Under the pieces are notes generated by a model. The model was given only the letters and a program-made list of their open reading frames with translations. It was not told the DNA's origin and ran no database searches. From Planctomycetota bacterium (lineage in GTDB: Bacteria > Planctomycetota > PLA2 > JAEUHO01), in assembly GCA_965222115.1 (NCBI GenBank), contig CBDCTJ010000003.1:480001-544000 (forward strand): DNA of 64,000 nt. The letters run 5' to 3'. Each line of letters starts with the position of its first letter. Position 1 is the stretch's first letter. Positions 1 through 16,070 of the stretch are shown piece by piece. The translations under genes were made by a program, and so were the position numbers.

Positions 1-1327
1 TGCGGCTCGGGCCAAGGGTGATGTCTTCAAGATCGACTTCGCGACCGTCCGTTGGCGGTGGCACCGCCTCCGCAAAGTACCGGGCGTGGCCGCGCGCGAA
101 TACCGTCAAGCTGTGCGTCATCTCTCGACGTAAGCTTGAGATTGTAAATCGCCCCGCCGCGTCGGTAACCGTGCTGCCCATGGAGCTGACACTGCTCTGG
201 TATCCGATCGCGCTGACCTGAGCCTTTCCAATCGGATTGCCGTCCGCATCGACGACGCGCCCTACAAAGCGATGCCCGGGTACGAGTTTGAAGTCGAGCG
301 TCTCGTGCTGCTCGACGTCAATCTGGGCGCGGCCATAGCCTTCCGCCAGGACGTGAACATCCGTGACACCTTTGCCGGTCCATCCATGGAGCACGAAGCG
401 CCCGTCCGCATCCGTCTTGGTCCGCGGAGTCAGAACCCAGTTCATGCCGACGTGCGCTCCCTCGACTGCTTTGCCTGTCGTGGCATCGGTCACACGACCG
501 CGGAGGGTTCGGCCCTTTGGCAAGGTTAAGTCGTGAGTCGTCGTCCCAGATTTCTCCATCGAGATGGTAATCCAACTGGGGTTGCCCCAGCCTTCGCGCT
601 GAGGACGTGGGTCGAGGAAGATCCTTGGCATGGGCGGTATGTCGTCAAACACACATACCCCGGCCTCATTGGTTGTTCCCACGCGTCGGAATGACGTATC
701 GCGACGGCCGCGGCGAAACACGTGTAGCAACAGGCCCGCTGCCGGCTTGCCCTCCGGCGTCTTGACGTTGACAACAAGAACCCGAGGTTTTTGCATGACG
801 ATGCGCGCGCGCTCACCGGACAGGCGCAAGGTGTATTCGGTCGTCGCCAATCCATCGGCCGAGACACGAAGATTTACGTGCTCGCCCTTTCGAAGCCGAA
901 TCAAGAACGTCCCGTCAACCGCACTGCGAGTCGCGAGCCCTGCATGCGATTCGCCGTAGAGACCCCGTCTAGTCAATAGACCATCGTGACGCCAGGGGTA
1001 GTGGAGTACTTGCAGCGCCGCACCCGCAACCGGCGAACCATCTTCACGAACAACCACGCCATGCAGATCGCGCTCACGATCTGCTTTGCTGAGGTCTACG
1101 GGAGCAGGAAGCGCGGGAGCCTCTTCAACGTCTGTGGAGCCGCCGCCCTTGAGACCGACATGGTCCTTGGCGTTCTGCTCTACCGTGAGCGACGCGTTTG
1201 GCGTCCCCACATTGTTGGACTCGGCATTCGCGTCGCTAGGTGAATTATCACCCCGCCATCCGTAGTTCCAGACGAGCGCGACAATGACGAGTAGCGCCAG
1301 AACGATCAACCAGCGTCGTGTCTGCAT
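1..1327 (-). CDS. Membrane-anchored carboxypeptidase-regulatory-like (CarboxypepD_reg-type) repeat protein, partial (runs off window start)
   Basis: Not in ORF track. Manual translation of both ends: GGGGAG RBS, ATG at 1327, MQTRRWLIVLALLVIVALVW (TM); in the same frame near the window start FVGRVVDADGNPIGKAQV..TVTDAAGRFTISSL. Confidence 0.8.
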   Translation of the reverse strand, partial: MQTRRWLIVLALLVIVALVWNYGWRGDNSPSDANAESNNVGTPNASLTVEQNAKDHVGLKGGGSTDVEEAPALPAPVDLSKADRERDLHGVVVREDGSPVAGAALQVLHYPWRHDGLLTRRGLYGESHAGLATRSAVDGTFLIRLRKGEHVNLRVSADGLATTEYTLRLSGERARIVMQKPRVLVVNVKTPEGKPAAGLLLHVFRRGRRDTSFRRVGTTNEAGVCVFDDIPPMPRIFLDPRPQREGWGNPSWITISMEKSGTTTHDLTLPKGRTLRGRVTDATTGKAVEGAHVGMNWVLTPRTKTDADGRFVLHGWTGKGVTDVHVLAEGYGRAQIDVEQHETLDFKLVPGHRFVGRVVDADGNPIGKAQVSAIGYQSSVSSMGSTVTDAAGRFTISSLRREMTHSLTVFARGHARYFAEAVPPPTDGREVDLEDITLGPSR

Positions 1328-1387
1328 ATGTACTCCCCGCAGTGTTGAACGCGCACATCATAGCAAGGCTCGATTTAAGATACCGAG

Positions 1388-1891
1388 TTACATTCTGAAA
1401 TCTGTGTCCATGGCTCCGGATGGTAGAACCTTCTCGTATGGATAGCAGCGCGTGACGCCAAATCCGGGCGTGGCCTCGCATGTTGCGACGTATCCATGAC
1501 GCTCATAGAACGTCCTGGCGCAGACTGTGCTGTTGAGCGTGATTCGTTTTGTTCCCCAACGTGCCGCTTGCGTTTCCAGAGCAGCCAACATTTGGGCTCC
1601 AACGCCGCGGGATTCCTGTCCGGGCAGCACGTAACACAGCGTAATGGTGCCGCTTCGCCCGATCGATCCAACACCCACAATCTCGTCATGCAACTCGGCC
1701 ACGATCATGAAGGTCTCATTGCTGGCGATCCACTCTCCGACGCGTCGGGCCGTCTTGTTGGATAGCCACTGTGCCAACGTGTCGGGATCGTGCTGATGGT
1801 CGGCAGTGCAAAGTTCTTGAATGGAACGTCGAAGGACGTGGGCAGCCACGGGAGCATCGGAAGCCAGAGCGGGACGAACGGTTACGGACAT
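1388..1891 (-). CDS. GNAT family N-acetyltransferase
   Basis: MSVTVRPA..., motif A YVLPGQESRGVGAQML, motif B ARTFYERHGY; start trimmed to ATG 1891. Confidence 0.9.
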   Translation of the reverse strand: MSVTVRPALASDAPVAAHVLRRSIQELCTADHQHDPDTLAQWLSNKTARRVGEWIASNETFMIVAELHDEIVGVGSIGRSGTITLCYVLPGQESRGVGAQMLAALETQAARWGTKRITLNSTVCARTFYERHGYVATCEATPGFGVTRCYPYEKVLPSGAMDTDFRM

Positions 1892-2036
1892 GGTGTCGCG
1901 CCACTCTACTGGCACACCGCGCCGTCGTCGCGATCCTCGCTCTCCGCGCCAGCGTCGGGCTTGCAGCAGGCGGGATGCGGGGAAGGCCTCCGCTACGCGC
2001 AGAATCTGGTGCGGTGCAGCGTGTGATCCTCCCGCG

Positions 2037-2357
2037 ATGCTCACTGACCCCGATCCCGATGTGCAAGCGCTTCTGTCGGCCGGGCGCAATGCGGAAGCGC
2101 GCAAAGAGAGGCTCGGAGAGCTCCTCTTTCAGTACCGCGCACGGCTTTTGCGGGTGGTCGAGCTGCGGATGGATCCCGTATTGCGCGCTAGGCTCGGAGC
2201 ATCGGACGTGGTGCAAGATGCGTATGTAGAAATCGCCCGCCGTGTCGATCGCTACCTCAAGGCGCCCACCATGCCCTTTTTCTTGTGGGCGCGCTTCATC
2301 ACCGTTCAGCGAATCCTGAAGGCGCATCGCTTTCATGTGAGTGCCCAGCAACGAGAC
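2037..2357 (+). pseudogene. Truncated planctomycete-type ECF sigma factor (region 2 only), interrupted by repeat element E1
   Basis: RLLRVVELRMDPVLRARLGASDVVQDAY..PFFLWARFIT..AHRFHV.AQQRD; then frame runs into E1 and stops at 2420; no region 4 seen. Confidence 0.8.
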
Positions 2358-2680
2358 ACGGTGTACGGGCAAAATCCACACTTTTCTTGTCCTTATGGAG
2401 TGCGATGCGCACTCCTCTAGCGACGTGTAGATCATCGATGGAGCGTTCGTGTGAGACCGAAGCACCGGTGGGGTATCGAACTTTTGAGAACTCTTTGCGG
2501 TCGGCATGATGCATAGCTGATCGCAGCGGCAACGGACGCAAACACTGTGGACTGCACACAACAAGTATCATTGCCGATATGTGTGAATTTGCTTCTGACG
2601 CTGTACTCCTGCACACGGCATTCGCGCTGTTGACTGAACGCTGCCCTACGAAAGGTGTGGATTTTGTCCGTACACCGTAT
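2358..2680. repeat. Repeat element E1 (MITE/REPIN-like, terminal inverted repeats)
   Basis: ACGGTGTACGGGCAAAATCCACACTTTTC (2358-2386) vs reverse complement of 2650-2678, 27/29 identical; interior homologous to E2. Confidence 0.9.
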
Positions 2681-2743
2681 GCCCTGGGACTCCTGCAACA
2701 GCGGATGGCAGGCTGGCGGCCATCGTTCGGAGGACTTGAGTGA
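2681..2743 (+). pseudogene. Probable 3' tail of a NitT/TauT-type ABC permease
   Basis: ALGLLQQRMAGWRPSFGGLE* resembles the permease C-terminus (cf. IFGWIERRLVPW in 16145..17017); TGA overlaps the ATPase GTG start (GTGA). Confidence 0.45.
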
Positions 2744-3528
2744 CGACTGCACAGCTCGAAGTTGAACGAGCCCATTTCGTTGTGCGATCAAAGGCCTTCG
2801 GCGATCAGGTCGTGCTTCGAGCGGTGGACGCTACCGTGCGTCGGGGCGAGATTCTGGAAATCCTTGGCCCAAGCGGCATCGGCAAGACAACGCTGCTGCG
2901 GATAGTCGGCGGGCTGGACACGGACTACGACGGAGAGGTGGTGATCGCAGGCAGCGAGCTGACGGGCCCCTCAAGAAACGTCGCGTTTGTGTACCAAGAT
3001 CCGGCACTGTTGCCATGGAAGACAATCCACTCGAATCTGCGCTTCGCCCAGAGCCACGAGCTATCTCACAGTGAATCTGCGGCCCAGATAGAGCACGCCC
3101 TGGAGCTTGTAAACCTGGATCCTGAGACTGTCTCTCTGAAGCGGCCGAGTCAAGTGTCTCGCGGGATGGCCAAGCGAGTAGCGATTGCGCGTAGTATCGT
3201 GCAAGGTGCCCACACAATCTTGATGGATGAACCGCTGGCGGATGTTGATCAGTTCACGAGAGAAGCGATACAGGAAACGATTGTCCGCCTTCCCGTAGCG
3301 CGAAAGACGGAGCCCAGCATTCTCTTCGTCACCCATGACGTCAGAGAAGCCGTATTCATGGCTGATCGGCTCCTGCTTCTCTCCCCTGAGCGCCCGGCTA
3401 CGGCAGACAGGATCATCGAGGTCGGTGTTGCGCGGCCCCGCGACCGACTTGACAGACGACTCCTTGAACTCGAAGCAGAGATCGATGAACACTATCGCTC
3501 GGCGTGTGAGACTGGACGGACGGACTGA
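2740..3528 (+). CDS. NitT/TauT/SsuB-family ABC ATP-binding protein (orphan)
   Basis: Walker A GPSGIGKT, Q-loop YQDPALLPW, signature variant VSRGM, Walker B ILMDEP, FVTHD. Confidence 0.9.
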   Translation: MTTAQLEVERAHFVVRSKAFGDQVVLRAVDATVRRGEILEILGPSGIGKTTLLRIVGGLDTDYDGEVVIAGSELTGPSRNVAFVYQDPALLPWKTIHSNLRFAQSHELSHSESAAQIEHALELVNLDPETVSLKRPSQVSRGMAKRVAIARSIVQGAHTILMDEPLADVDQFTREAIQETIVRLPVARKTEPSILFVTHDVREAVFMADRLLLLSPERPATADRIIEVGVARPRDRLDRRLLELEAEIDEHYRSACETGRTD

Positions 3529-3579
3529 CAAGTAGCCGGCGAGCCTCCGGGCTGGCCCAATGCCGTTTCGCGATGGTCG

Positions 3580-4689
3580 CTACGCCTCCGGCAGGACCGT
3601 CAGTAGCAGAGCAGCCATTCGTACATGGAGGACCCGGGCTTCTTCGGCTGTCAGTTCAGACGGGACTCGGTGAACCGATTCGTCGAACAGCTTCAAGAAC
3701 GGACCCACAGCGTCGACGTCCGTGGCGACGTACTTCTGCATGGAGGCCGTTTCTTGCCTGGCAATGAAGCGAATCCTGGCCTTGCGCGTTGGCTTGCCAT
3801 TGCTGAAGTCCTTCGGGTCCGTCGACCAATCCTGAACCTTGTCATCCGGGGAGAGGGTGTGCAGCACGTATCGGAAGAGCTCGCGCAACGAGGCGCCAAC
3901 ATGGCGTGCGACATCCGGCCCGCCCGCGCTCAATGCGGCGGAGGCGCCCTCCCAAAGGCTGACGCACTCCGGATCGAGCGCTGTGAGTCGGTCCACGAGC
4001 ACCACCTCCGTCTGGTCGAGAACGAGCGTGGTCTGCGCTTCGGCATCCTCTTCGAGCTCGGGCTCGCGGTCTTCGCGGGGGAGCGTTACGACTTCGGCAA
4101 GCCGCGAAGCCACAAATCGCTCACGTGCAACGGTCGCGGCTGTCTGCAGCCGCACGTGCGTCTCAAGCGATGCTGCCCCAAGCTCCGCGAGTACGTCCGA
4201 CTCTGCAGCCCAGAGACGACCGAGTTTCGCGTCGATCTGTGTGGCGGCAGCCCAGTCTGACGGGACCAGGCCGCCAATCTTCAGCCCGGCCATCTGATCC
4301 GCGAGGCGAGAAGAGATCGACAGTGACTGCTCGAACGCAGCCAGAACTTTCGCAGACTCCGCCAACGTTGAGGCGTACCCCGGCAGCTTCGGGGTCGTTG
4401 CCTTGGCCAAGGCGTCTAGCTGGCGCTGGGATGCGTTCTGGATCTCCTGGAACTGCTGGCTGACGCGAGTCACGGAACTTGCGACCTCAATCGCCTTGAG
4501 ATTCGGAGCTGACAGCTGCTCCAAGCGCCGGGTCTGCTGGGCGATCTGCTCCACAACGTGCATTGCGCTGGCTGACTTTGCCATCTCCTGCATCGTCGTG
4601 CCAAGAAGGCGGGAGTTCTCGATCATCCTGACAAAGGCCTCGGTGGCGCGCATGTGCGCCATCAGGGCTGAACTGTCGTGCTTAGCCAC
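3580..4689 (-). CDS. Helical N-terminus plus predicted pPIWI-associating nuclease-like domain (pP_pnuc_1-like)
   Basis: C-terminal LWEGASAALSAGGPDVARHVGASLRELFRYVLHTLSPD..GKPTRKARIRFI..SVH pattern; GTG 4689 preceded by GGAG. Confidence 0.65.
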   Translation of the reverse strand: MAKHDSSALMAHMRATEAFVRMIENSRLLGTTMQEMAKSASAMHVVEQIAQQTRRLEQLSAPNLKAIEVASSVTRVSQQFQEIQNASQRQLDALAKATTPKLPGYASTLAESAKVLAAFEQSLSISSRLADQMAGLKIGGLVPSDWAAATQIDAKLGRLWAAESDVLAELGAASLETHVRLQTAATVARERFVASRLAEVVTLPREDREPELEEDAEAQTTLVLDQTEVVLVDRLTALDPECVSLWEGASAALSAGGPDVARHVGASLRELFRYVLHTLSPDDKVQDWSTDPKDFSNGKPTRKARIRFIARQETASMQKYVATDVDAVGPFLKLFDESVHRVPSELTAEEARVLHVRMAALLLTVLPEA

Positions 4690-4764
4690 GGTCTCACTCC
4701 CGGTCCTTGTGCGCCCCCGCACCGGATCATACCGGACGAAATACGGAGATGGGATGAAAAGGCC

Positions 4765-4842
4765 GGTAGCTCCTCTGTCGCGCAGTCACGGTAAACCGTG
4801 CTGCAAACAATAAACGGGCTCTACGGCCCAGGAGGAGCTACC
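4765..4842 (+). promoter_or_regulatory. Inverted repeat able to sequester the transposase RBS
   Basis: GGTAGCTCCT (4765-4774) is the perfect complement of AGGAGCTACC (4833-4842), which overlaps the GGAGG RBS before ATG 4846. Confidence 0.6.
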
Positions 4843-4845
4843 AGC

Positions 4846-5895
4846 ATGCATAAGCGTATCACCGAAACGATTGGCATCGACTTAGGCGACCGATTCTCTT
4901 GGTATTGTGTCTTAGATCAAGACACGGGGGTTCAGAAGGAAGAAGGCGAGATAGCGACAACGCGCGAATCGTTTCACGAGTTTCTCTCGAAGCACCGAAC
5001 CGCTCGAGTTGTGATGGAGGCGGGAACGCATTCGCCTTGGGCGAGTCGGGTCGTCGAAGGTCGATGTGCTCAGTCGCTAGTCGCGAATCCGCGAGAGCTA
5101 AGCTTTATTTACAGGAACGCTCGCAAGTCCGATCGAACGGATGCCAAGAAGTTGGCTGAAATCGGTCGCTTCGATCCCCAACTACTTGCCCCAATTCGGC
5201 ATCGACCGGAGTCCGCACAACGAGACCTTGCGCTGATTCGTGCACGAGCCGCGCTTGTGTCGTCACGAACCAAGTTGGTGAACTCGCTACGAGGTGTCAT
5301 TAAGAGCATGGGCGGGCGGTTGCGTAAGCAGGCATCAAAATGCATCGGATCGAAGACGCGGGCCGAGATTCCGGAGGAGCTCTGCGATGTGCTCAATCCC
5401 ATTCTCAGTGCAATCGAGCGAATCACTGAGTTGGTAAAGATCTACGACGCAAAGATCGATGAGTTGGCGAAGGAGCGATATCCAGATACACAGTTGCTCA
5501 CTCAGATTCCAGGCGTGGGCAATCTCACGGCACTCGCATTCATGTTGACCGTTCAAGATTGGGCGCGGTTTGAAGACCGCCGAGATGTCGGGGCGTTTCT
5601 CGGGATGGTTCCACGGCGTGATCAATCCGGCCAAATGGACAAGCAGCTACGCATAACGAAGGCTGGGGACCGTATGGTTCGGTCGTTGCTCGTTCAGTGC
5701 GCGCATCACATCCTCGGGCGACTGGGCCCGCCATGCGATCTAAAGTCCCACGGTGAGCGGATCATTGCGCGTGGAGGCGCAGTTGCGAAACGCAAGGCAG
5801 TCATCGCCGTGGCACGCAAGCTCTCCGTGCTCATGCTTGCGCTGTGGCGAACAGGCGAAGAGTACATACCGGTTCGATGCCCAGTGGCTGCCTGA
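4846..5895 (+). CDS. IS110 family transposase/recombinase
   Basis: DEDD RuvC-like motifs GIDLG, VVMEAG, KSDRTDA; IPGVG; catalytic-Ser motif RRDQSG; AVARKL. Confidence 0.97.
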   Translation: MHKRITETIGIDLGDRFSWYCVLDQDTGVQKEEGEIATTRESFHEFLSKHRTARVVMEAGTHSPWASRVVEGRCAQSLVANPRELSFIYRNARKSDRTDAKKLAEIGRFDPQLLAPIRHRPESAQRDLALIRARAALVSSRTKLVNSLRGVIKSMGGRLRKQASKCIGSKTRAEIPEELCDVLNPILSAIERITELVKIYDAKIDELAKERYPDTQLLTQIPGVGNLTALAFMLTVQDWARFEDRRDVGAFLGMVPRRDQSGQMDKQLRITKAGDRMVRSLLVQCAHHILGRLGPPCDLKSHGERIIARGGAVAKRKAVIAVARKLSVLMLALWRTGEEYIPVRCPVAA

Positions 5896-6264
5896 ACCTC
5901 GCGCAACAGCTTTAGGCAAGCATTAGAAAGGTCAGTTTCCACGTACCCCAATTCGAGTCCGGGTGACTGCGGTGCCCTGACCGACGTATAGCGACGTCGC
6001 TACTGAGTATGCAGCACCCAGACTCGTTCTCGGACCCCACCTTGCACCGGGTCGCATCAACTTCGATCCAACACGAGTGCGCATAGAAGCCTGAATGGGA
6101 CGTGTTTTCTGGCGCCAGTGACGATGGCTGGCAATTTGATTCGCTCCGATCCGCTGCCAGAAAGGCAAGGGCGATAAGGGTAAGTTGCGTACTCAAGGGG
6201 CCGAACTACACATGCACAACGCGGTAAATGCGCTCGCCGACGCGGCTTCGCACTTGACATGCCA
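5896..6264 (+). ncRNA. Candidate bridge RNA/seekRNA region of the IS1111-group element
   Basis: About 370 nt non-coding; hairpins CGACGT/ACGTCG (5982-5999) and ACTCGT/ACGAGT; CATAGAAG (6082-6089) equals the element right terminus (6273-6280); boundaries uncertain. Confidence 0.6.
6254..6259 (+). promoter_or_regulatory. Outward-facing -35 box (junction promoter on circularisation)
   Basis: Perfect TTGACA just inside the right IR; 17 nt later the circle junction would read GAAGAT (weak -10). Confidence 0.5.
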
Positions 6265-6280
6265 GGCCTTTTCATAGAAG

Positions 6281-6689
6281 TACGGGAAAAATCCACACTT
6301 TTCTTGTCCTTTAGGTGCGCCATGCACGCTCCTCTAGCGACGTGCAGTTCATCGATGAATTGTTCGGTCGAGATAGACGTCGCAGATGGGGCACCAAACT
6401 CTCAAGCTCTCTTTGCGCTGGGCAAGCCAGTCGAATTCGATCGCCAGCATGCCTCATGGTCATTGCAATGATCCTACTTCGTCACGTCGACATAGTCACT
6501 CGGCACGATCGGAATGACGCATAGCAGATCGCAGCGGCAACGGACGCAAACACTGTAGACTGTACACAACAAGTATCGTTGCCAATAAGTGTGAATTTGC
6601 TTCTGACGCTGTTCTCCTGCACGCAGCATTCGCGCTGTTGACTGAGCGCTGCCCTACGACAAGTGTGGATTTTTCCCGTACACCGTATT
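6281..6689. repeat. Repeat element E2; its first bases (AATACGG, 4740-4746) are displaced by the IS
   Basis: Reconstituted left end AATACGGAGTACGGGAAAAATCCACACTT vs reverse complement of 6661-6689, 28/29 identical; long left and right blocks shared with E1. Confidence 0.9.
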
Positions 6690-6726
6690 CTTGCGGAACG
6701 CGGTGCGGCGCTAGGCCACGGAGTGG

Positions 6727-7947
6727 TCAGCAGGCGATCTCCGAGACGGTCAGATTGCCTTTACCGTCACGGCAGAAGATCGTGGTGTCTCCGTCCGTGG
6801 AGACCACAAGGCCGAAAGAGTCCGAAACGCGGCTTGTCGCACATGCGATCGACTTGTGTCTCGTCCCCTTCTTGCGCGACTCCAAGAACTCCCGGACCCC
6901 AGGCGGTAGGTCGGGGTATGCATCCTCCGCAAGCAGCTTGCTGCCGACACCCAGGGGACGGAGCATGGGTCCGAGAACCACTGCCCCGTCGATGCGCGTC
7001 GCGTGGCAGAGACGCACGACCTCGTCGTCAGCCATTCGCGCCGACGTCAGCATGTGCTGGGTGTACGGATGCTTCAGTGCTGGCGGCGGCGCCGGAGGAT
7101 CGGCGGGGTCGATAGCACGGCACGCGAGCGACTCCTGCAACCCCCCCGACCAGTCATCGCCGGCCGACTTCAAGGCGTTTGCCTGGTCTACACACTTCAG
7201 TTCGTCGAGCGACGCGGCGCAGGTGACCAGTACCCCGGCGCCGCCGCCGAGTCTCCTTGCCGACCGCGCTAACTTGAGCAGGGACTGTCCCAAGCCATGA
7301 GCGATGCCAAGCAGCAACGGTGCGTCGGCACGCACGACCCAGTCGGCCTGTTCTTCCGCAGTGAACAGACTCCTATGCAGGTCGCCGGCGCGGAGTTGAA
7401 CATCCCAGCTGGAAATCAGCAGGTATGCGGGCGGGATCACCGTCCCCACTTCGATTAAGGTGGCTGGGCGTCGGCACGCCGTCTTCAGGAAGACAGCTTC
7501 ACCGTCGGCGTTCTTGACATACAGCTCCGCGACGTCCCGCAGCTCTACGACACAGCCCGCTCCCCACTCGAAGGCATGGCCACTCACGAAGTTCGCAACT
7601 TGACGGGAGACGATGCCACGGACACGAAGCCCATCGTTGCTCCCTTCGATGACGAATGCCGTCTCCCACGGATCGAAAGCCGAGCCGACTTTGCGAAGCC
7701 AGTCCACTGAAACGGAGGGCTTCTGCGAGAACTCGACGAGCAAGTTCAGTGTGGCGTCGGCGGGAAGCAGGAGAAACGACCCGCACGGCACGCGCCCCTC
7801 TTCCCGGTAGAGCCCGGTCTCGTAGAGCAGATCAAGCAACTCGGTCGTCGCGGGAGGCCACGGCAAGCGGTCACTTTCAGCGAGATGCTCTTGCGCCGCG
7901 TCGAGTAGTGACGACGCGTCAAAGCGCCGATAGCCTGCAGTAGCCAT
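6727..7947 (-). CDS. Diadenylate cyclase (DisA_N/DAC) domain protein with N-terminal DACNV-like sensor domain
   Basis: RIDGAVVL (DGA), GTRHKS (RHR-like), VVSTDG; N-terminal ETGLYREEGR; GGGAGG RBS; no TM helices evident. Confidence 0.8.
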   Translation of the reverse strand: MATAGYRRFDASSLLDAAQEHLAESDRLPWPPATTELLDLLYETGLYREEGRVPCGSFLLLPADATLNLLVEFSQKPSVSVDWLRKVGSAFDPWETAFVIEGSNDGLRVRGIVSRQVANFVSGHAFEWGAGCVVELRDVAELYVKNADGEAVFLKTACRRPATLIEVGTVIPPAYLLISSWDVQLRAGDLHRSLFTAEEQADWVVRADAPLLLGIAHGLGQSLLKLARSARRLGGGAGVLVTCAASLDELKCVDQANALKSAGDDWSGGLQESLACRAIDPADPPAPPPALKHPYTQHMLTSARMADDEVVRLCHATRIDGAVVLGPMLRPLGVGSKLLAEDAYPDLPPGVREFLESRKKGTRHKSIACATSRVSDSFGLVVSTDGDTTIFCRDGKGNLTVSEIAC

Positions 7948-7995
7948 GTGCCTCCCCGATCGAGCCTAGCACGCGGTCAATTGCCTCGCAGTACA

Positions 7996-8029
7996 TAATA
8001 CCGTAATACCGTGCCGTAATACCGTGCCG
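7996..8029. repeat. Short direct repeats, TAATACCG x3, upstream of the DAC gene
   Basis: TAATACCG at 7996, 8004 and 8017; TAATACCGTGCCG twice in tandem. Confidence 0.7.
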
Positions 8030-8075
8030 CGTTTCTTCCCACCAAGTAAGTGACTCTAGACCTATGCGCATTCAG

Positions 8076-8589
8076 AGATTCGGTGTGCGGGCGAAGTCCA
8101 CACGTTCTGTATTGCTCGGCGAAGTCAGAGGCATCTTGCCCACACGAAATGAGTGGAGGATCGGGGAAGAGTCGGAACTTCTGTGTAAGGCATGTCGTCC
8201 GATCCAAAGCCGAGAGAATGCACCGTGGCTCAACGTAAAGAAGAGCGAGCCCGTAGGCGTTACTGGTTCGAGCCCAGTAACGCACACCAACGAGTTCTCC
8301 TCCTTCTTAGCAATAGCCCAACTCACGCCATACTGGAGCCCCCCAAAATGGCAAGTTCCATGCTGCGACAAAACACGTGACCGCTTCTCAGCCACTTTGG
8401 CTGCCGAGCCGCCAACAGCTTGCGTCGACGGACTAATCTTTGGTCATTCAAATGGTGGGCTAATTTGTGGTGCGTATCAAGTCGTGTCGAATTGCCTCGG
8501 ACTGTCAAGGAAACGCTGCACTAGGCGTCCGCCCTGGTGACTGTGCGCTGTCCTACTAAAGGTGTGGATTCTGCCCGTGAACCGTATCT
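8076..8589. repeat. Repeat element E3 (diverged copy, different interior)
   Basis: Ends AGATTCGGTGTGCGGGCGAAGTCCACAC and GTGTGGATTCTGCCCGTGAACCGTATCT; last ~90 bp align with E1/E2 (CTGCAC..TGACTG..CGCTG.CCTAC..AGGTGTGGAT). Confidence 0.8.
8257..8289 (+). other. tRNA 3'-end-like fragment (T-arm plus ACCA) inside E3
   Basis: ACTGG-TTCGAGC-CCAGT T-arm, 7 nt, then ACCA; no complete cloverleaf. Confidence 0.5.
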
Positions 8590-8634
8590 TCAGAGCAATG
8601 AACACCGTTTTCGCATCCCGAAGCAAACTGTAGA

Positions 8635-9561
8635 TCACCTTCCCTGAAAGCCATGGCGCCTCATGATTTTGAGTTGCTCCAGCTGCAGTTTGTGGATCCC
8701 TTTCAGCTTAGTCTCCAGACTCGATGGATCCTGAATGAGTTTGTGCTCGAGCATATAATTCTTCCACCTCTCCGACTGGCCCGGTGACATTGTCCCAAGG
8801 TGTTCGATTAGCTTAAGAGAGTCCGTGGAGCTTAGCGTTGATCCATTTTGCTTGGCGAGTGCAACCATATTGCATCTCTGAAGATGTTTCAGAAGAGGAG
8901 TAGGTGCAATCGTTTTTTCAGTTTGGTAATTGAGCACCAACTCACGCAATTCGGAATCGTCCAACGCATTGCCAATTCGCTCTTGAACATATCGTGCGCA
9001 ATTGTTGAACAGTGCATGATAATTCCATTCAACATAGTTTTCTTCTGAGACTTCAACTCTCTTCATTGCTAGCAAGACGGAGCGCAGCATCTTGTGAACT
9101 GACCGATTTGACATTAGATCAGAAATAGACTCTTGAGTGATGTGCGTGTTCTCTCCCTTCTTCGACATCAACTGCTTCTTCCCAAACACTCTTAGGATCG
9201 AGATCGCCTCGTGATTGGCATTCTTGGGTCGTCTTCCCACGTCAATAACAAAGCTCTTCTGTTTAGCGTCAGACCCGAGGCTGACAGTGATGGCCGCATG
9301 TTCCCCATGCCCGAAGAGCCCCCTAGGATTCCACACCACATAGGCTACATTTGAGACTTCCTGTCCGGCGTCAACGCATGCGCGTAGTTCCTTTAGCGCC
9401 TTGGAAATGTTCTCCTTCGTAGTGTTGCCGTCGGGTCCCACAAATTTCTTGACCCAACGGCCGAAGTTCGAGTCACGCACTCCTGGGACAACGTGAGAGA
9501 CAAGGACTGTGAGTGCGATCAATATGACGAGCACTGCCATCCCGCGTGCAACAAGCTTCAT
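8635..9561 (-). CDS. Membrane-anchored permuted papain-like (PPPDE/LRAT-type) protein
   Basis: N-terminal TM; His before Cys: GEHAAITV ... YHALFNNCARY; AGGGGG RBS; visibly AT-richer than neighbours. Confidence 0.55.
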   Translation of the reverse strand: MKLVARGMAVLVILIALTVLVSHVVPGVRDSNFGRWVKKFVGPDGNTTKENISKALKELRACVDAGQEVSNVAYVVWNPRGLFGHGEHAAITVSLGSDAKQKSFVIDVGRRPKNANHEAISILRVFGKKQLMSKKGENTHITQESISDLMSNRSVHKMLRSVLLAMKRVEVSEENYVEWNYHALFNNCARYVQERIGNALDDSELRELVLNYQTEKTIAPTPLLKHLQRCNMVALAKQNGSTLSSTDSLKLIEHLGTMSPGQSERWKNYMLEHKLIQDPSSLETKLKGIHKLQLEQLKIMRRHGFQGR

Positions 9562-9931
9562 GTGATCCCCCTCTCGTAATAGATCTTACCGCTCAATACA
9601 GACCAACCGTATCTCTTGAGCAACTCTGCAGGGATTAGAACAGAACGACCAAAACATGCAATGGCGGCCCTCGACGATTTTCTGGCCAGTTGACTATTAT
9701 GGATTCTGAGGCATAGATCATGCGTCGAGTTCAGCGCGATCGCACCTATAGATCAATGTCTGGTGTCATATTGAGTGAAACGCAAGTGCCTAAAGGATAG
9801 GACATTGGAACTAGGTCCACGCCTTACGGGAATTCCAACTTATATGCTGATGCACACTTCGCACGGGACTTGGAAGACCGTGGAATCTATGGACCGACCT
9901 GACGTGCAAAGCGCGAATCTACCCACCCACC

Positions 9932-12160
9932 CTACTCCACCCCCAACTCCCCTATCGCCAACAAGGCAAGCGCAGTCGAACTCGCCTTCCCAACCATGAG
10001 CGAATCGGCGAAGCTACCGTCAACCTCCTGGAGCGGACGGATGATGTCGCGAAGACGCTTGACGTACTTTTTCTGCGCGGCTTCCGGTAGCACGGCAATC
10101 GTTCGTGCGGCGTACCAGACGCCGAAGAAGTAACGGTAGGAATCCTGCATTGACGTTGGATCCACGTAGCTCTCGAAGACCTTTACTGTGCTCCGAGCGC
10201 CCTTGAGGCCATCGAAAAACACGTCTAACGACTCGTGTAGTCGCTTCTCACCCTTGGAATGGCCGGCGGCGTGGAGTGCCAACTCGCAGAGCGGGCTGCG
10301 GAAACATGAGGAGGCGCGCGCAATGTCTTTGTCGCGGGCGGGCGTCATGTGTTCCATCTTCGTGCCGTAGTGGAAGACGCTCTTGCCATCGAGGCGATTC
10401 TGCTCGAGAAACGTTGCGCAGCGGGCGATCTGCGAGTCTTCGACGGCGAAACCCTGTGCTTTCGCATTGACCAATAGAAGGAGGATCGGTGCGGTGTTGA
10501 AGGTGTGGAGGCGCGCGGGTCCTGTGTAGGTCCAGCCTCCGCCGTGCTCCGTGTCCTTGAGCTTGGCAAGGAGCTTCTCGATGCGGGCCGCACCCTTTGT
10601 CTTTGCGGCGTCACGTCGATTCGGCTGTAAGGCCAGCTCAAGATGAAGGGCATAGGTCAGATGCCAGACCTTCGGCGTCGGATCACTCGACCACGCGGAA
10701 ACGATCCTTGTACCTTTCGCAATGGCCTTGTCCGCGCGCTTCGCAAGCTCACCCTTGAGAGCGCCGCGCCACGTACGAAGCGCGTCCACACAGAGTGCGG
10801 TGCGGGGAACGATGACGCCGTAGTCAATTGCACGTTCGCGACTCGGGTGGCGATGGCAGGGCTCTGGCCAGGAACCGTCGGCATCCTGCTGATCCAATAG
10901 GAAGCTGACTGCCGCACGCACGGCGTTGCGCTCACCAGGGGCTTGTTCCGTACTGTCGAGTAGCGGGTCGGTTGCATCCTGTGCGCGGGTCTCCCACACT
11001 CGCGGAAAAGGACCATTCTTATCGAGTAGAAGACGTGAGCGCGCTTCGAGGGGCCGAGGCTCACCGCGGCGCGCAATCGCTTGCAGGTGCGTGTGCGCCT
11101 TGTCGGTGTCACCCCTTTCAAGCGCGGCGAGCGCTTTGTCGTAGTCTGCGCGATCCTTCGGGTCGGCCGGATCGACGCCGACTTGGGGCATTTCCTTTGG
11201 GCGGTAGCGCTTGTTCTTATCGAGTATCGCACGACAGGTACGCTCGAAGAGTCGCGGATCAAACACTGCCATACGAACGACGCGATGGACACATTTACCG
11301 CTCGGCGTGGCGAAGATGATTGCCGGCGCATGGGAATCGGCCGCAGACGTGCCGAGTTGCGGAAGAGGATCGGACCACGTGCCCTTCCCCGAAGAAAGAA
11401 AGTGCCATGTGTGCATATGCACGCGCACGGGAATGAAACATGTGGCAACTAGATTGGACACGGCGGGATCGCCGAGGAATGCCGTGAGGATGGCGCGCTC
11501 CTTCCAGTAACCGGGATCGCGAGTGATCGGAGACGGCGGCGGCGCTGCCTGATTGGGATGACGAAACTCTGCGACCTTGCGGGCGCCTTCGTATCCCGCT
11601 TCCCAAACTTTGTTGTCCCACGGCGTCACGAATGCGAGGACAAGCTTGTTTTCGTCTTTGGCTCTTGCGCGCGCCGCTTCGATGGTGTCGGCCCAGGGGA
11701 TCCACGGAAACACGAGCTTACCGGATGCTGCGCCGGATAGCGCCTCGATGGCTTTTGTGATCTGAGTCTTCACGTTCGGTCGCTTGCACGCTACTTCGAG
11801 TGCCTTCAACTTGGGAAGCACGGAGCGGTCACCGATTCGCCCCAACGCCTCCGCAGCACAACCCGCTACGAGCGCGTTGGGATCCTCGACGCCAACGAGC
11901 AGATCCGCGACAGCGGCGCGTGCTTTCACTGAACCAAGGACTTTGGCGGCGTGCCAACGACGCGTCGGGTCCTTGTCGTCGCGGAACACCTTGTGAACCG
12001 CCGGGATCACCGGCTCGCCGAGCCGGGTCAACGCCTGCATAGCTTCAAATGGGTGCTTCTGATCACTCGTTCCGAGCTTCTTCACCCATGTGGCGACGTC
12101 ATCGTTTCCGGCAAATGCCATTCCTGTGAACAACAGCACCAACAAGATTGCACGCTTCAT
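9932..12160 (-). CDS. Secreted HEAT-repeat + thioredoxin-like + prenyltransferase/squalene-cyclase-repeat protein
   Basis: Signal peptide; AAEALGRIGD; IPWADTIEAARARAKDENKLVL; AVSFLLDQQDADGSW, LQEVDGSF. Confidence 0.75.
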   Translation of the reverse strand: MKRAILLVLLFTGMAFAGNDDVATWVKKLGTSDQKHPFEAMQALTRLGEPVIPAVHKVFRDDKDPTRRWHAAKVLGSVKARAAVADLLVGVEDPNALVAGCAAEALGRIGDRSVLPKLKALEVACKRPNVKTQITKAIEALSGAASGKLVFPWIPWADTIEAARARAKDENKLVLAFVTPWDNKVWEAGYEGARKVAEFRHPNQAAPPPSPITRDPGYWKERAILTAFLGDPAVSNLVATCFIPVRVHMHTWHFLSSGKGTWSDPLPQLGTSAADSHAPAIIFATPSGKCVHRVVRMAVFDPRLFERTCRAILDKNKRYRPKEMPQVGVDPADPKDRADYDKALAALERGDTDKAHTHLQAIARRGEPRPLEARSRLLLDKNGPFPRVWETRAQDATDPLLDSTEQAPGERNAVRAAVSFLLDQQDADGSWPEPCHRHPSRERAIDYGVIVPRTALCVDALRTWRGALKGELAKRADKAIAKGTRIVSAWSSDPTPKVWHLTYALHLELALQPNRRDAAKTKGAARIEKLLAKLKDTEHGGGWTYTGPARLHTFNTAPILLLLVNAKAQGFAVEDSQIARCATFLEQNRLDGKSVFHYGTKMEHMTPARDKDIARASSCFRSPLCELALHAAGHSKGEKRLHESLDVFFDGLKGARSTVKVFESYVDPTSMQDSYRYFFGVWYAARTIAVLPEAAQKKYVKRLRDIIRPLQEVDGSFADSLMVGKASSTALALLAIGELGVE

Positions 12161-12430
12161 TGCGTCCTCCTGCGATGATCCACAGTAAGGGGAAGGGCAG
12201 GGTGGGCGGTGGGGCTTCCAACAGCCTGCGCTGACGATTTTGTCCTTTGTTGTTCAAGTGGTACGTGAATACACGGATGCGTGTGTCAAAAGTAGACGGA
12301 CTTGGACCATTGTAGAAGCCCCTCGTGGGCACTTCGGGCACCTGGAGAGTACCGCGTGATAAAGTCAGAGGCGGCATTCGATAGAAGTACGAATCGGGCC
12401 GCGCGATTTGTGTAACACCTTCTTGGTGAG

Positions 12431-13960
12431 ATGGGGGATTTCCCATTCATGTCCAACGGTAAATCCAATGGTTGTGCCTTCGCTGTGCTACTCGTAGCGG
12501 CAGGTCTCCTGTACGGGCTTATTGACGTGCAACAACGGGTTGAGGCAAAAGAGGACATTAGAAGAGAAAAGCTGATCTTACTCGGTCAACCGAAACAAAG
12601 AACCATCCGCATCGCCTATATCCCACGAGATACTCCTCCGAAGATCAGGAAGGAACTCGGAGCGCTCAATATTGCTATCGAACAAGCCAAGAGGGCTACG
12701 ACAGAGGCGGACAAGATTGTCAATCTTCCGACCTACTTCGACCTCGAGGTCGATGTCTATCAGGTCAAGAGAACGGTGTTTGGGAAAAAGGTATCTTTCG
12801 CGGACGTCAACGGCGACGGTGATGTCCTTGACAGCAACACAGACGCGTTTCTGATCCACGACGTCGCGGGCAAGACCCCGATGTGGATCCCTTTCGAACC
12901 GAGTTGGGGATTCTCAATCGGGGTAACGTGGCTCTCCGAGTTTCAAAGAGGTCCAGAGCCCACTCAGCTCCGTTTTCAAGCCACAAGGCAAGAGGTCATC
13001 ATCTCCCTCAAAGAACTCCTCAAGCGTAACGACGAGGGGCTGGGTCTCCCGGCGGGAACGCTGCAGCGCTACTCGCTCACGCGATCGAAGGCCCCCGAAG
13101 ACGGACTCATCTCGAATGCGGCTATCAAGGGGCAGAAGAGCGGGTGGAAGGCAAATCGAAAGGGAGCAATCGAAGCCTACGTAGCACTAAACCAGCGGCG
13201 GCGGCAATTTGGTGGCCTCCCTTGTTCGCGTGCAATGCTCCACCTTTCGGCCCGCTGCTCGCTTCACTCTTGGTACCTAAAGAAATATGGGGATGAATAC
13301 GCTCATTATCAGGACAAGAGCCACACGGACCGCTACACCGTGGCTGGTGCGGCCGCAGCCGAGCTCTCAACTCTTGGCACCAGCGCGGGTGTTCTTGGGC
13401 TTGACGAAATGATGGGGACTTTCTTCCATCGAGTCTTGATGACAGAGAACGCGCTCCTTTACGTCGGCTCATCAACGGTTGGAAGCTATTGGGTGATGGA
13501 CGTTGGCGAGGGATGGAACAAAGCGGAAGCTAAAGAGCGGCGCCCGTGTCCAATCATCACCTTTCCTGCTGCCGGCGCAAGTGATGTCCCGAAAAGAGGT
13601 GTCGAAGACGAAGACCCCCAGTTCCAAGATGAGGACATTTCCGCTCCTGGGATGCCATTCACGGTTCGGCTCAATTACTGTTCTCCGTGGTTTGAACTCG
13701 CAGACGTCAAAAAGACAGGCGCGCAATTCTACCGAGGAGGCACACCTGGCCGCAAAGGGATGGCCCTGCCAACACGACACAGCTCTCCTGTCAACCCAAG
13801 ACATTCCGATAGCGGGAACAGCGGTGTCTCGAAGAACATGGTGGCAATCTGCGCCTACACGGAAAAGCCCTTAAAGTCAGGAACCAAGTACTGTCTCGAA
13901 GTGCTGATGTACGCTAACGGGGTGATATTTAGAGCCATCGTTCCCTTCCGAACAAAGTGA
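12431..13960 (+). CDS. Membrane-anchored CAP/SCP-like domain protein
   Basis: N-terminal TM; LNQRRRQFGGLP..CSLHSWYL..AHYQD..MGTFFHRVLM. Confidence 0.6.
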   Translation: MGDFPFMSNGKSNGCAFAVLLVAAGLLYGLIDVQQRVEAKEDIRREKLILLGQPKQRTIRIAYIPRDTPPKIRKELGALNIAIEQAKRATTEADKIVNLPTYFDLEVDVYQVKRTVFGKKVSFADVNGDGDVLDSNTDAFLIHDVAGKTPMWIPFEPSWGFSIGVTWLSEFQRGPEPTQLRFQATRQEVIISLKELLKRNDEGLGLPAGTLQRYSLTRSKAPEDGLISNAAIKGQKSGWKANRKGAIEAYVALNQRRRQFGGLPCSRAMLHLSARCSLHSWYLKKYGDEYAHYQDKSHTDRYTVAGAAAAELSTLGTSAGVLGLDEMMGTFFHRVLMTENALLYVGSSTVGSYWVMDVGEGWNKAEAKERRPCPIITFPAAGASDVPKRGVEDEDPQFQDEDISAPGMPFTVRLNYCSPWFELADVKKTGAQFYRGGTPGRKGMALPTRHSSPVNPRHSDSGNSGVSKNMVAICAYTEKPLKSGTKYCLEVLMYANGVIFRAIVPFRTK

Positions 13961-14399
13961 ACAAAGCCGGGGATACCCAGTCGGGACCAAATCCACACTA
14001 TTCGGGGATTGTGTTTGATCATGCTCGCGCGAGAATGCTCCGGTTCTTAGTATCGTACGGATTCGTCGCAAAAATCATTTCTCCAACGACGGGCGCTCCT
14101 CCATCGCGATCGAAGACACGGCCACAAATGGTGATCAACTCGTCGTGTTTCAGCCCAACTTTCAGGATACCGGAGATACGGCATGTTAAATGAAACGGCC
14201 GGACGTCTAACTTACGAAGCCACATCGGCGAGCGTAACTTATTCAGCGCGTGCATGGCCAGCAATCCACCTGAATTCGCGTATAGTACATACTCAGTCAA
14301 TCGCGTCGTTACTCTTGCGGCCATGCTGAGGAGCCAGGCATTTCATTCGTACCGTTTAATTCCGGCACGTACACGCATCGCTTTCCCGTTGCGGACGCA

Positions 14400-14735
14400 A
14401 TGCGTAGAGCGCGCTTGACGGAGGGGCAAGCGAACGCGTTGGAACGAGCGTTCAAACGTAAGGAACACATCGAGTGGGTCTTCAAATTTCGAAGCGATCA
14501 GACGTGTACTAGCTATTGGAAGCTGCCATCGGGAAGTCAAATGCCGGCGCTAACCGGATCTTGGCGCCAAACCGAAGAGACGACCGTGGAAGCATCGTTT
14601 GCCTGGGCATTTCTCATGCCGCCCGAGCTCGAATCTGGAGTGGACACGGATCCGTGGCGGATTGATTTAATTGATGAAGACGCCATTGACATTCACCACC
14701 CCACCCACGGTGTAATTCGCGCAATACGTTTGTAG
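14400..14735 (+). CDS. Hypothetical protein
   Basis: 111-aa ORF, plausible composition, co-oriented with downstream genes. Confidence 0.5.
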   Translation: MRRARLTEGQANALERAFKRKEHIEWVFKFRSDQTCTSYWKLPSGSQMPALTGSWRQTEETTVEASFAWAFLMPPELESGVDTDPWRIDLIDEDAIDIHHPTHGVIRAIRL

Positions 14736-14744
14736 ACTGTCCGC

Positions 14745-15092
14745 GTGAACAAGCACGGCGACGACTTGAAATGGGCAAAGCCCGGCGTGACGTTGCATGA
14801 GGGAAAGCAATCACTCGGCAAGCGCATAGGACTTGGCAAGTTTCTAGGTAACGCACGATTGGCATGGATTCTCTCGAGCGTGCTTTTGTTTGTTGCATAC
14901 TTGAATCTTCGTGCACAAGGAGCATGGGCGAGGGCGACGGCCAGTGTGGGTTCAAAGAGCCGAGTTCCGCAAATTGATGCAGCATGGAGTTGGATGAAGC
15001 TTGCGATTGCGGTATTCGTGATTGCGGGCGTAGTGTTCTTCATTGCGATGATTCGGCAATCGAGCAGAGACTACGATCGCACCAGGAGTTAG
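14745..15092 (+). CDS. Small two-TM membrane protein
   Basis: Hydrophobic segments LAWILSSVLLFVAYL and LAIAVFVIAGVVFFIAMI. Confidence 0.6.
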   Translation: MNKHGDDLKWAKPGVTLHEGKQSLGKRIGLGKFLGNARLAWILSSVLLFVAYLNLRAQGAWARATASVGSKSRVPQIDAAWSWMKLAIAVFVIAGVVFFIAMIRQSSRDYDRTRS

Positions 15093-15095
15093 TTC

Positions 15096-16070
15096 ATGAC
15101 CTCGCGGATCCCCGCCACAATCCTGCTCTGCGTTCTAACCCTCGGATGTGGTAATCGAGAACAAGCCAGCATCGTGTATGCAGGTTCCTCGTGGTACGGC
15201 CATGCACCCGTATGGGTAGGTCTGAAGCAGGGCATTTTCAAGAAGCACGGATTTCGGGTGGAGGAACGCGCCTTTGGAAGCAGCTCGGATCGGATCAATG
15301 CACTTGAGGCTGACAATGCACAATTTGCGAGCCTTGGCGAGGTGGCAATGCTCACGGCCATGTCTCGCAACCGAAGAGATTTCTATTGGATTGGTTGCCA
15401 GAACATCGCCCCCGGTAATGAGGGATTGGTCGCAAGCAAAGATGTCGCGTCCATTGCGGACCTCAAGGGAAAGCGTATTGCGCTCCAGCGCATTACGTCG
15501 GTGCATCTTACGGTTGCCATGTTGCTTGAAGGCGCGGGATTGGACATCACGAAAGACGTAACGGTGCTCAACGCAACCGATTCCACGGTCGTTGACATGG
15601 TTCGACGCGGTGATGCGGATGCGGGTGCGATGTGGGAGCCCTACTACACCGATTTGCGCGGAATCGACGGCATGCATGTGCTGGGCACCGACAAAGACAC
15701 GACGATCTACGAACGCTTCAAGACGATGAGTGGACCCGATGTCATCTGTGCATCTAAGGCGTGGGTTGATGCGGATCCGGAACGCGCCAAGCGATTCTTC
15801 AAGGCCTACTGGGAGGCGGTTGCGTGGTGCAAGGCTCATCCCGACGATCTCACCAAACTGATTGTTGAGCGCGTGCAGAAGGACGAGGCCTCGGTCAGAC
15901 GAGCCATGAAGAGCTTCGTATGGCTGACCTGGGACGATCAGCGGGAGATGCTGTCCGGCAATCGAATGTTTGGCCAAGCGCAAGTTGCAAGTGAACTTCT
16001 CAAGCGCATGGGATTGCTCGAAACAATTCCGCCATTTCGAGACTGGACGCGTACGGATTGGTTTCAGTAG
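15096..16070 (+). CDS. NitT/TauT ABC substrate-binding lipoprotein (SsuA/TauA-like)
   Basis: Lipobox LTLGC; SIADLKGKRIA; WEPY; first gene of ABC operon. Confidence 0.9.
   Translation: MTSRIPATILLCVLTLGCGNREQASIVYAGSSWYGHAPVWVGLKQGIFKKHGFRVEERAFGSSSDRINALEADNAQFASLGEVAMLTAMSRNRRDFYWIGCQNIAPGNEGLVASKDVASIADLKGKRIALQRITSVHLTVAMLLEGAGLDITKDVTVLNATDSTVVDMVRRGDADAGAMWEPYYTDLRGIDGMHVLGTDKDTTIYERFKTMSGPDVICASKAWVDADPERAKRFFKAYWEAVAWCKAHPDDLTKLIVERVQKDEASVRRAMKSFVWLTWDDQREMLSGNRMFGQAQVASELLKRMGLLETIPPFRDWTRTDWFQ

Follow-up and report, generated by a model that had tools for sequence, protein, structure and literature searches.

Bacterial miniature inverted-repeat transposable elements (MITEs), such as the Correia/NEMIS elements of Neisseria, are short and gene-less, end in inverted repeats of ~26-30 bp, occur in tens of mostly intergenic copies and have no transposase of their own. 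Integron arrays and clusters of attC sites lacking an integrase (CALIN) are composed of same-orientation sites that separate cassettes, with no integrase nearby. The insertion sequence (IS) IS26 generates 8-bp duplications. IS26 translocatable units and arrays, in which same-orientation repeats are interleaved with cargo and target duplications are missing at the internal copies, are on record (PMC4196232, PMC4676283), and IS110-family elements are reported to insert into resident repeats (bridge RNA of IS621, PMC11208160; ISPpu10, bioRxiv 10.64898/2026.03.19.712850). We analysed three elements, E1, E2 and E3, which alternate with unrelated genes in a 64,000-nucleotide stretch of DNA (the window) from a Planctomycetota bacterium (contig CBDCTJ010000003.1, positions 480,001 to 544,000). 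In an assessment that we make with some reserve, they probably belong to an orphan, genome-specific family of MITE-like elements that a DDE-type transposase mobilises in trans, and they look like ordinary transposon relics, not like a new gene-capture machine.

Like the Correia/NEMIS elements, the members of this family are short and gene-less, have inverted ends, number in the tens, lie mostly between genes and carry no transposase. They differ from such MITEs in several respects: a cognate insertion sequence that shares their ends is lacking, most copies are solo ends, the copies are packed in three islands instead of being dispersed, two repeat sites occupy the right end, and partial tips lie outside many ends. 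The resemblance to IS26 arrays consists in same-orientation repeats among unrelated cargo and in one target duplication that is also 8 bp long; however, IS26 is a complete 820-bp insertion sequence with a transposase, whereas the unit considered here, built on a 26-nt core which we call R26, is a gene-less end fragment of variable length for which no such transposase was found in the source genome. As in CALIN, sites of one orientation (6/6 and 7/7 in two arrays) lie between unrelated, often defence-type genes with no integrase nearby, but the cargo occurs in either orientation, often with several genes together, and inverted pairs exist.

Direct reading of positions 1800-10200, together with a repeat finder and alignment, bore out the original prediction in its description of three homologous non-coding elements in one orientation, with inverted ends and a conserved right block. 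E2 does consist of two pieces, as had been stated, but it had been overlooked that a 1.53-kb insertion sequence of the IS110 family splits its left end. The elements and the features that belong to them are as follows (positions in the window, strand where assigned):

2353..2680: E1, full-length element, with the left end repeat at 2356-2381 (minus strand) and the right end repeat at 2655-2680
2581-2606: inner R26b-like site of E1 (20/26 positions as in the R26b variant, read from the sequence)
4741..4746, minus strand: outer 6 nt (ATACGG) of the left end of E2, cut off from the remainder by the insertion sequence
4746..6279, plus strand: IS110-family insertion sequence, 1.53 kb, within the left end repeat of E2; transposase at 4798-5895
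6280..6688: remainder of E2, comprising the left end repeat from GTACGGG, the interior, the right block and the right end repeat (6663-6688)
8070..8077: target-site duplication of E3, 8 bp, left-hand copy ATTCAGAG (read from the sequence)
8078..8587: E3, diverged full-length element, with the left end at 8078-8103, the right block at 8516-8561 and the right end at 8562-8587
8588..8595: target-site duplication of E3, 8 bp, right-hand copy CTTCAGAG (read from the sequence)
9605..9623, plus strand: copy of the right-tip junction of E3 (8580-8598), 19 nt, 16/19 identical, beyond a low-GC gene
13973..13998, minus strand: degenerate solo end repeat (repeat finder and core pattern search)

The inverted arms comprise 29 nt with 93% complementarity in E1 (2358-2386/2650-2678), 24 nt with 96% in E2 (6280-6303/6658-6681) and 32 nt with 84% in the more diverged E3, and the elements measure ~328 bp, ~415 bp (insertion sequence excluded) and ~510 bp, respectively. 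The left boundary of E1 was placed at 2353, where the match to contigs from other contexts starts. E1 and E2 have in common a right stretch of 183 nt (91%) and a left stretch of 94 nt (83%), while the right block common to all three covers 72 nt (81-90%). In the window a 27-mer occurs three times at ≤3 mismatches, against 0.00 expected, and the degenerate core eight times, against 0.33 expected. A Pfam-based check of the open reading frames (ORFs) gave no coding signal in the elements, whose sole long ORF (8064-8540) has no Pfam family; nor is there any Rfam family in window positions 1-16000. The right end of E1 and E2 has two direct R26-type sites, 74 nt apart (2581-2606 and 2655-2680 in E1), a layout like that of transposon ends with several transposase-binding sites, which these sites may putatively be.

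The source genome, a metagenome-type assembly of 7 contigs that is 90% complete, contains 30 copies of R26 at ≤5 mismatches; with nhmmer, the count is 28 at a threshold of E≤1e-4 and rises to 73 at E≤10. The core reads GTGTGGATTTTG[C/T]CCGTACACCGTAT, with its tip at ...CCGTAT, and the end repeat as a whole measures ~30-38 bp: conservation extends from about -8 to +26, followed by a weaker CYCY at +27 to +30 and by background farther out. A reversed polarity, with the cargo as the element and the interiors of E1-E3 as flanks, was rejected, since conservation goes inward from GTGTGG and ends at CCGTAT. Both ends are present at six loci, 190-510 bp apart, the other copies being solo ends, and doublets of R26-type sites (43-59 nt apart) occur at four other loci. 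The copies do cluster, as had been suspected: 20/28 have a neighbour within 10 kb, whereas 2000 random permutations gave 3.1 on average and never more than 13.

Terminal inverted repeats, small size with no coding capacity and multiple copies, as in MITEs, are joined here by clustering. The original prediction had proposed a MITE/REPIN family that clusters here. Its MITE half is supported by inverted ends, non-coding interiors, many clustered copies, one target duplication and the presence of end sequences in other contig contexts; its REPIN/HUH half is not supported, there being no significant hairpin and the only RAYT-like gene having a different repeat (see below). Copies scattered singly with target duplications, a pattern which the prediction had set against its own proposal, are not what is seen.

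The statement that no target-site duplications are visible holds for E1 and E2. E3, however, is flanked by ATTCAGAG and CTTCAGAG, which are 7/8 identical and directly abut both tips; by our own calculation, the chance of a match of ≥7/8 at E3 is ~4e-4 per register. The other five two-ended copies have no duplication. Three tandem duplications adjacent to tips (copies a2, a6 and b5) show a spacing of exactly 8 nt, a unit which matches the 8-bp duplication of E3.

A further class of evidence consists of genes severed exactly at tips: a sigma factor gene and a gene upstream of an ATPase gene, both at E1, and an integrase gene at contig 7 645786. The genes and gene fragments around the elements are:

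2037..2352, plus strand: 5' part of an ECF-type sigma factor gene, ending at the left tip of E1
2681..2743, plus strand: remnant, 20 codons long, of a gene preceding that of the ABC ATPase; it begins at the right tip of E1 (read directly)
2740..3528, plus strand: ABC transporter ATPase, full length, 262 aa (PF00005, ABC_tran, 95.1 bits, profile 1-137/137)
3580..4722, minus strand: protein with a C-terminal pPIWI-associating nuclease domain (PF18165, pP_pnuc_1, 72.9 bits; PADLOC Aga_Nuclease, 30.8 bits)
6727..7947, minus strand: protein with an N-terminal DACNV sensor domain (PF21751, 30.4 bits, cut-off 27)
8635..9561, minus strand: low-GC gene with a putative N-terminal membrane anchor (judged by eye from the sequence)

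Sigma70_r2 matches residues 109-170 of ORF 1821-2420, and the paralogues of the sigma gene (58% and 46% identity) run on for ~100 further residues. When the C-terminal parts of two paralogues were used as tblastn queries, only other complete sigma genes came up, and no orphan C-terminal half beside any repeat copy. The stop of the 20-codon remnant, which plausibly derives from a permease gene, overlaps the start of the ATPase gene (GTGA). With the sigma gene cut at 2352 and the remnant starting at 2681, the flanks of E1 are thus two unrelated truncated genes. Truncation at tips would follow from adjacent deletions or from recombination between same-orientation copies. The tip is also the point at which the similarity between copies ends in every case.

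The nuclease-like gene and the sensor gene had been recognised correctly by the original prediction, and their profile matches agree with it. The supposed ABC fragment, in contrast, is a full-length ATPase, and the supposed papain-like gene (8635-9561) has no Pfam, NCBIfam, PADLOC or PHROG family. The latter has a GC content of 0.435-0.53 (genome ~0.59), and its only leads come from a language-model atlas, which points to TseH-like and IcsB-like clusters with a score of 0.91 and 138-140 shared features, as against 170 typical of true members. An NMT1-type substrate-binding protein gene (15096-15998) lies 11.6 kb away from the ABC ATPase gene; the two may once have formed one transporter operon, later split by rearrangements at the elements.

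A MITE-like origin of E1-E3 would involve the following steps. A DDE-type transposase acting in trans, and not contained in the assembly, would cut at the tips, and each insertion of the element would duplicate 8 bp of its target. Adjacent deletions and recombination between copies of like orientation would afterwards have acted at the ends; they would have erased most of the duplications and of the left ends, leaving the solo right ends and the neighbouring genes severed at tips. Copies may build up in accessory, defence-rich islands, where insertions would be tolerated and where short-range hops would land, and such accumulation would give the appearance of repeats alternating with foreign cargo. 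The end repeat may finally serve an IS110-family insertion sequence as a landing site. The anatomy and number of the copies, their clustering, the single target duplication, the truncation of neighbours, the ends in other contig contexts and the correctness of the assembly are shown by the data; the type of enzyme, the history of deletion and recombination, and the local hopping are what we infer.

Independently built contigs from four runs of one study, which may include the source sample, hold the stretch. E1 is crossed by contigs that cover 584-4775, 1-4775 and 1400-4770, and the right part of E2, E3 and the cargo by contigs that cover 6251-16000 and 6251-15707. The long contig pieces show 0-5 differences from the window, and those of 584-4775 and 6251-16000 none. 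The contigs break only at the multi-copy IS110 element, where their depth goes up.

Some of these contigs place family ends in other contexts, each such case being seen in one or a few low-depth contigs. The left end of E1, from 2353 on, is joined to other flanks in three contigs of X1 and two of X3; in one X3 contig, the IS110 sequence is broken at 5362 by an R26b-type end; and in one X4 contig (510 nt, depth 3.7; window 2320-2353), the 32 nt that abut the left tip of E1 have given way to a single T; the reference form is present in further contigs from that sample. A TA-dinucleotide duplication of the IS630 type was considered and rejected, as the X3 contig has at 5362 an end including TA where the target is without TA, and the genome has no DDE_3 transposase. 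Nowhere in the contigs matched to the window is a cargo segment skipped or inverted at a joint; contigs drop rare variants, so this has no weight either way.

No cognate enzyme is linked to the repeat in the source genome, and no element bounded by these ends encodes a RAYT/Y1 or other transposase there, a possibility which the original prediction had raised. XerC-like, XerD-like and three other tyrosine recombinases are intact and one is truncated. The integron integrase profile TIGR02249 reaches at best 112-114 bits (cut-off 265), with proteins that score as XerC/XerD. Neither a serine recombinase nor a match to the DDE_3, DDE_Tnp_1 and Tn3 transposase families is present in the genome; a Y2_Tnp search gave no match either, but its control was found in no genome and the result is hence uninformative. 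The insertion sequences comprise two IS3-like elements, two copies of a two-rve element, five ISL3, one IS66 and three IS110 elements, all with other ends. The five ISL3-family copies (contig 1 57.7 kb; contig 7 185.2, 1273.1, 2431.2 and 2557.8 kb) are near-identical, 1.43 kb long and each flanked by a clean 8-bp A/T-rich target duplication, and their ends are unrelated to the R26 family.

Outside the source genome, the R26 pattern at ≤3 mismatches was found in 0/40 relatives, the 193-nt right half of E1 in 0/39 other genomes of the order, and exact-pattern scans of public metagenome and genome collections gave 0 and 0 matches. A looser pattern matched once in the metagenomes and not at all in the genome collection. 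This match, GTGTGGAATCTGCCCCGACACCGTATC, is the only R26-like site found outside the source genome; it lies on a 137-kb contig at position 2001-2027, just past a gene end, and agrees with the R26a consensus at 23/27 positions, including 5/8 of those left free in the search pattern.

Two further islands of R26 copies lie on contig 7. Array 1 (641.8-669.6 kb) consists of 6 solo copies, 6/6 in + orientation, and array 2 (2273.5-2284.3 kb) of 7 solo copies, 7/7 in + orientation, while the orientation of the R26 sites within the window alternates. Candidate defence genes among the array neighbours are PDC-S11, PDC-S39/DUF4209, PDC-S01, two DUF7684 genes and a CdiI-like immunity gene, with an adjacent type I restriction system. 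Array 1 starts 4 kb from a tRNA gene, and its phage-type tyrosine integrase gene lacks the N-terminus, is frameshifted and begins exactly at the repeat tip (contig 7 645786); this region (contig 7 637875-646516) looks like an old tRNA-linked island. A repeat copy also ends each of two RHS toxin loci (1722 and 1672 aa; contig 1 100038-106567 and contig 7 1568007-1573637). Each locus closes with a different small immunity-like ORF, followed by the tip and by a common block of 272 nt (88% identical), which holds a small membrane-protein frame.

The genome is rich in interspersed repeats, and several solo ends adjoin DNA composed, mosaic-like, of other short repeat modules (contig 7 2280700-2281170 and ~65 other places), among them one of ~100 nt with two perfect hairpins (~40 copies) and one of ~130 nt (~15 copies). 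Contig 6 (48116 bases) has a GC content of 39.7%, as against 55-59% in the other six contigs, and could represent a foreign replicon or have been binned in error.

Several observations weigh against a MITE-like origin. No element with these ends encodes a transposase, either in the source genome or in the public scans, and only one of the six full-length copies has a target duplication. The solo ends of both contig 7 arrays are unidirectional, which random decay of MITEs would not predict. Just outside ~8 ends, left ends included, there are partial copies of the tip, 6-12 nt long, at a variable spacing of 8-16 nt. The 19-nt direct repeat 8580-8598/9605-9623, in which the terminal 10 nt of E3 are followed by 9 nt of flanking DNA, lies on both sides of the 1-kb low-GC gene and thus places a copy of the E3 tip junction past it; this looks like a junction duplication and fits no simple model. 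Two DUF7684 paralogues (64% amino acid identity) each lie just past a tip, in the same orientation. The similarity between copies extends inward over a variable length (72-490 nt) and always ends at the tip, which a MITE-like origin leaves unexplained. Moreover, as the repeat is in no other genome searched, movement between strains could not be compared.

The unidirectional solo arrays, the tip-bounded similarity, the partial tips, the 19-nt repeat and the DUF7684 pair make tip-specific recombination a live rival. The end repeat would then be a recombination site, at the tip of which an enzyme encoded elsewhere joins or removes segments exactly, in trans; this enzyme may be either a site-specific recombinase or a transposase that acts, like IS26, in a targeted, conservative mode. 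Cargo plus one repeat would stack head to tail, and the inverted pairs E1-E3 would be modules caught between two sites. The one-orientation repeats of the arrays, 0.2-10 kb apart among defence-type genes, would be expected of such stacking, as would the variable immunity-like ORF, tip and common block that close both RHS loci, and neither E1 and E2 nor the internal segments are flanked by target duplications. The IS26 reports offer a precedent for direct repeats with cargo but without duplications (PMC4196232, PMC4676283).

The enzyme and the site itself argue the other way. The genome has no integron integrase by score and no serine recombinase, and no recombinase lies beside any copy except the truncated one. 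The repeat has no dyad-symmetric core (on direct reading, its halves are complementary at 5/12 positions) and no significant fold, and E3 has an 8-bp duplication of the transposition type. The cargo genes, many of them housekeeping-like, lie in both orientations and in units whose size varies between 167 nt and 10 kb, and the tips follow no orientation rule with respect to gene ends, 17 facing a 3' end and 11 a 5' end (n=28, crude gene calls). The contigs likewise contain no skipping or inverting joint, though they would drop rare variants. On balance, we regard a recombination site as unlikely, albeit well worth keeping in mind. That an enzyme in trans adds, removes or flips DNA at the ...CCGTAT tip, and so builds defence and toxin-immunity arrays in several islands of one genome, as an integron- or IS26-like capture with neither IntI, attC fold nor a gene of its own, is a bolder proposal, which we consider rather doubtful. 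The cassette system with an enzyme elsewhere, put forward by the original prediction, therefore fares unevenly: one-orientation arrays and similarity that stops at the tip speak for it, while no dedicated enzyme and no attC-like site were found in the genome.

Invertons are present in both orientations in a population. It is improbable that E1-E3 are such elements, that is, promoter segments flipped by a recombinase encoded elsewhere so as to switch the adjacent defence gene. The anatomy would suit them (260-480 bp of non-coding DNA between inverted repeats of 24-32 nt), the left tip of E2 lies 18 nt upstream of the start of 3580-4722 and that of E3 130 nt upstream of the start of 6727-7947, and five intact tyrosine recombinases are encoded elsewhere in the genome. 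However, only the reference orientation occurs in the contigs, those spanning E1 and E3 showing 0 differences (rare variants would be missed), and a sigma-70 consensus scan found no sigma-70-like promoter in the elements. The left side of E1 faces a truncated gene and not a gene start, and the ~20 solo copies, the E3 duplication and the ends in new contexts would be left unexplained.

A REP/REPIN family (repetitive extragenic palindromes), whose hairpins are substrates of RAYT (HUH, Y1) transposases, is a very improbable identity for the repeats. Like REP/REPIN sequences, they are short, clustered, arranged in inverted pairs and used as targets by an IS110-family element; they can be drawn as a small bulged hairpin, as the original prediction had done; many copies have a GTAG motif 5-15 nt inside; and the genome encodes one RAYT-like protein (341 aa, contig 7 1066413-1067438, region 1066196-1067466). 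The hairpin is, however, not significant: folds range from -4.9 to -1.4 kcal/mol, with z from -1.6 to +0.65 against shuffles. The commonest variant reaches -1.4 kcal/mol (z +0.5) and the best, that of E1, -4.9 kcal/mol (z -1.6, with 11/200 shuffles as good), and an alignment of eight right blocks folds at -7.1 kcal/mol with a covariation of -0.19 and compensatory change in 2/15 pairs. Furthermore, the RAYT-like gene is flanked by a 22-nt repeat of its own, TTCGCTCCCGGCACNAATTGTG, in two to three tandem copies and in inverted orientation. This repeat has 16 copies in the genome and is a separate small REP-type family. The profile search that gave 28 R26 copies placed none of them near the RAYT-like gene or an IS200-like gene.

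As the fold is no better than those of shuffles, the REP/HUH and attC readings both fail on their defining features; for an integron, IntI is also missing from the genome and GTTRRRY from the repeat boundary. In the 28-bp dif site, a 6-bp spacer separates two 11-bp arms that are partly symmetric. A Xer/dif module was rejected, as direct reading of the consensus reveals no such arms and spacer, although XerC- and XerD-like genes do exist. An assembly artefact joining unrelated segments at a repeat, such as the metagenome-type origin in 7 contigs and the two truncated genes flanking E1 might suggest and the original prediction had feared, is ruled out for practical purposes, because contigs of four runs cross E1, the right part of E2, E3 and the cargo and break only at IS110, even if their support is not fully independent, given that the runs may include the source sample.

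The insertion sequence in E2 deserves separate mention. Its transposase matches PF01548, PF02371 and NF033542 (220 bits), and the element has three full copies in the genome, 98-100% identical (window 4746-6279; contig 7 506.9-508.4 kb; contig 7 2360.3-2362.0 kb), from the alignment of which its boundaries were taken. Two of the three, in the window and at 506.9-508.4 kb, lie inside an end repeat of the family. The third adjoins a partial copy of the same IS, at a GTCCGGG site resembling the GTACGGG of the repeat. The 3' non-coding part measures ~385 nt, and a guide RNA could lie there; a comparison of the non-coding parts with the flanks of the element found no common 7-9-mers indicative of guide-target pairing. 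The position of two copies in the end repeat resembles the insertion into resident repeats described in the IS621 and ISPpu10 reports, but this likeness concerns the insertion sequence and not the end repeat, and extends to three copies only.

To conclude, the best-supported view, which we favour with modest confidence, is that E1-E3 are members of an orphan MITE-like family, specific to its lineage, whose copies build up and undergo rearrangement in accessory islands. If this view is correct, the elements add one more lineage-specific MITE family and mark the variable, defence-rich islands of this genome, and E2 would also show how, in nature, an RNA-guided element of the IS110 family homes to a repeat already in place. 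Should the tip instead be a recombination site, defence genes would be stacked by a process independent of an integron integrase and of any self-encoded transposase, and the contig 7 arrays, together with the junction repeat at the low-GC gene, would exemplify such stacking.

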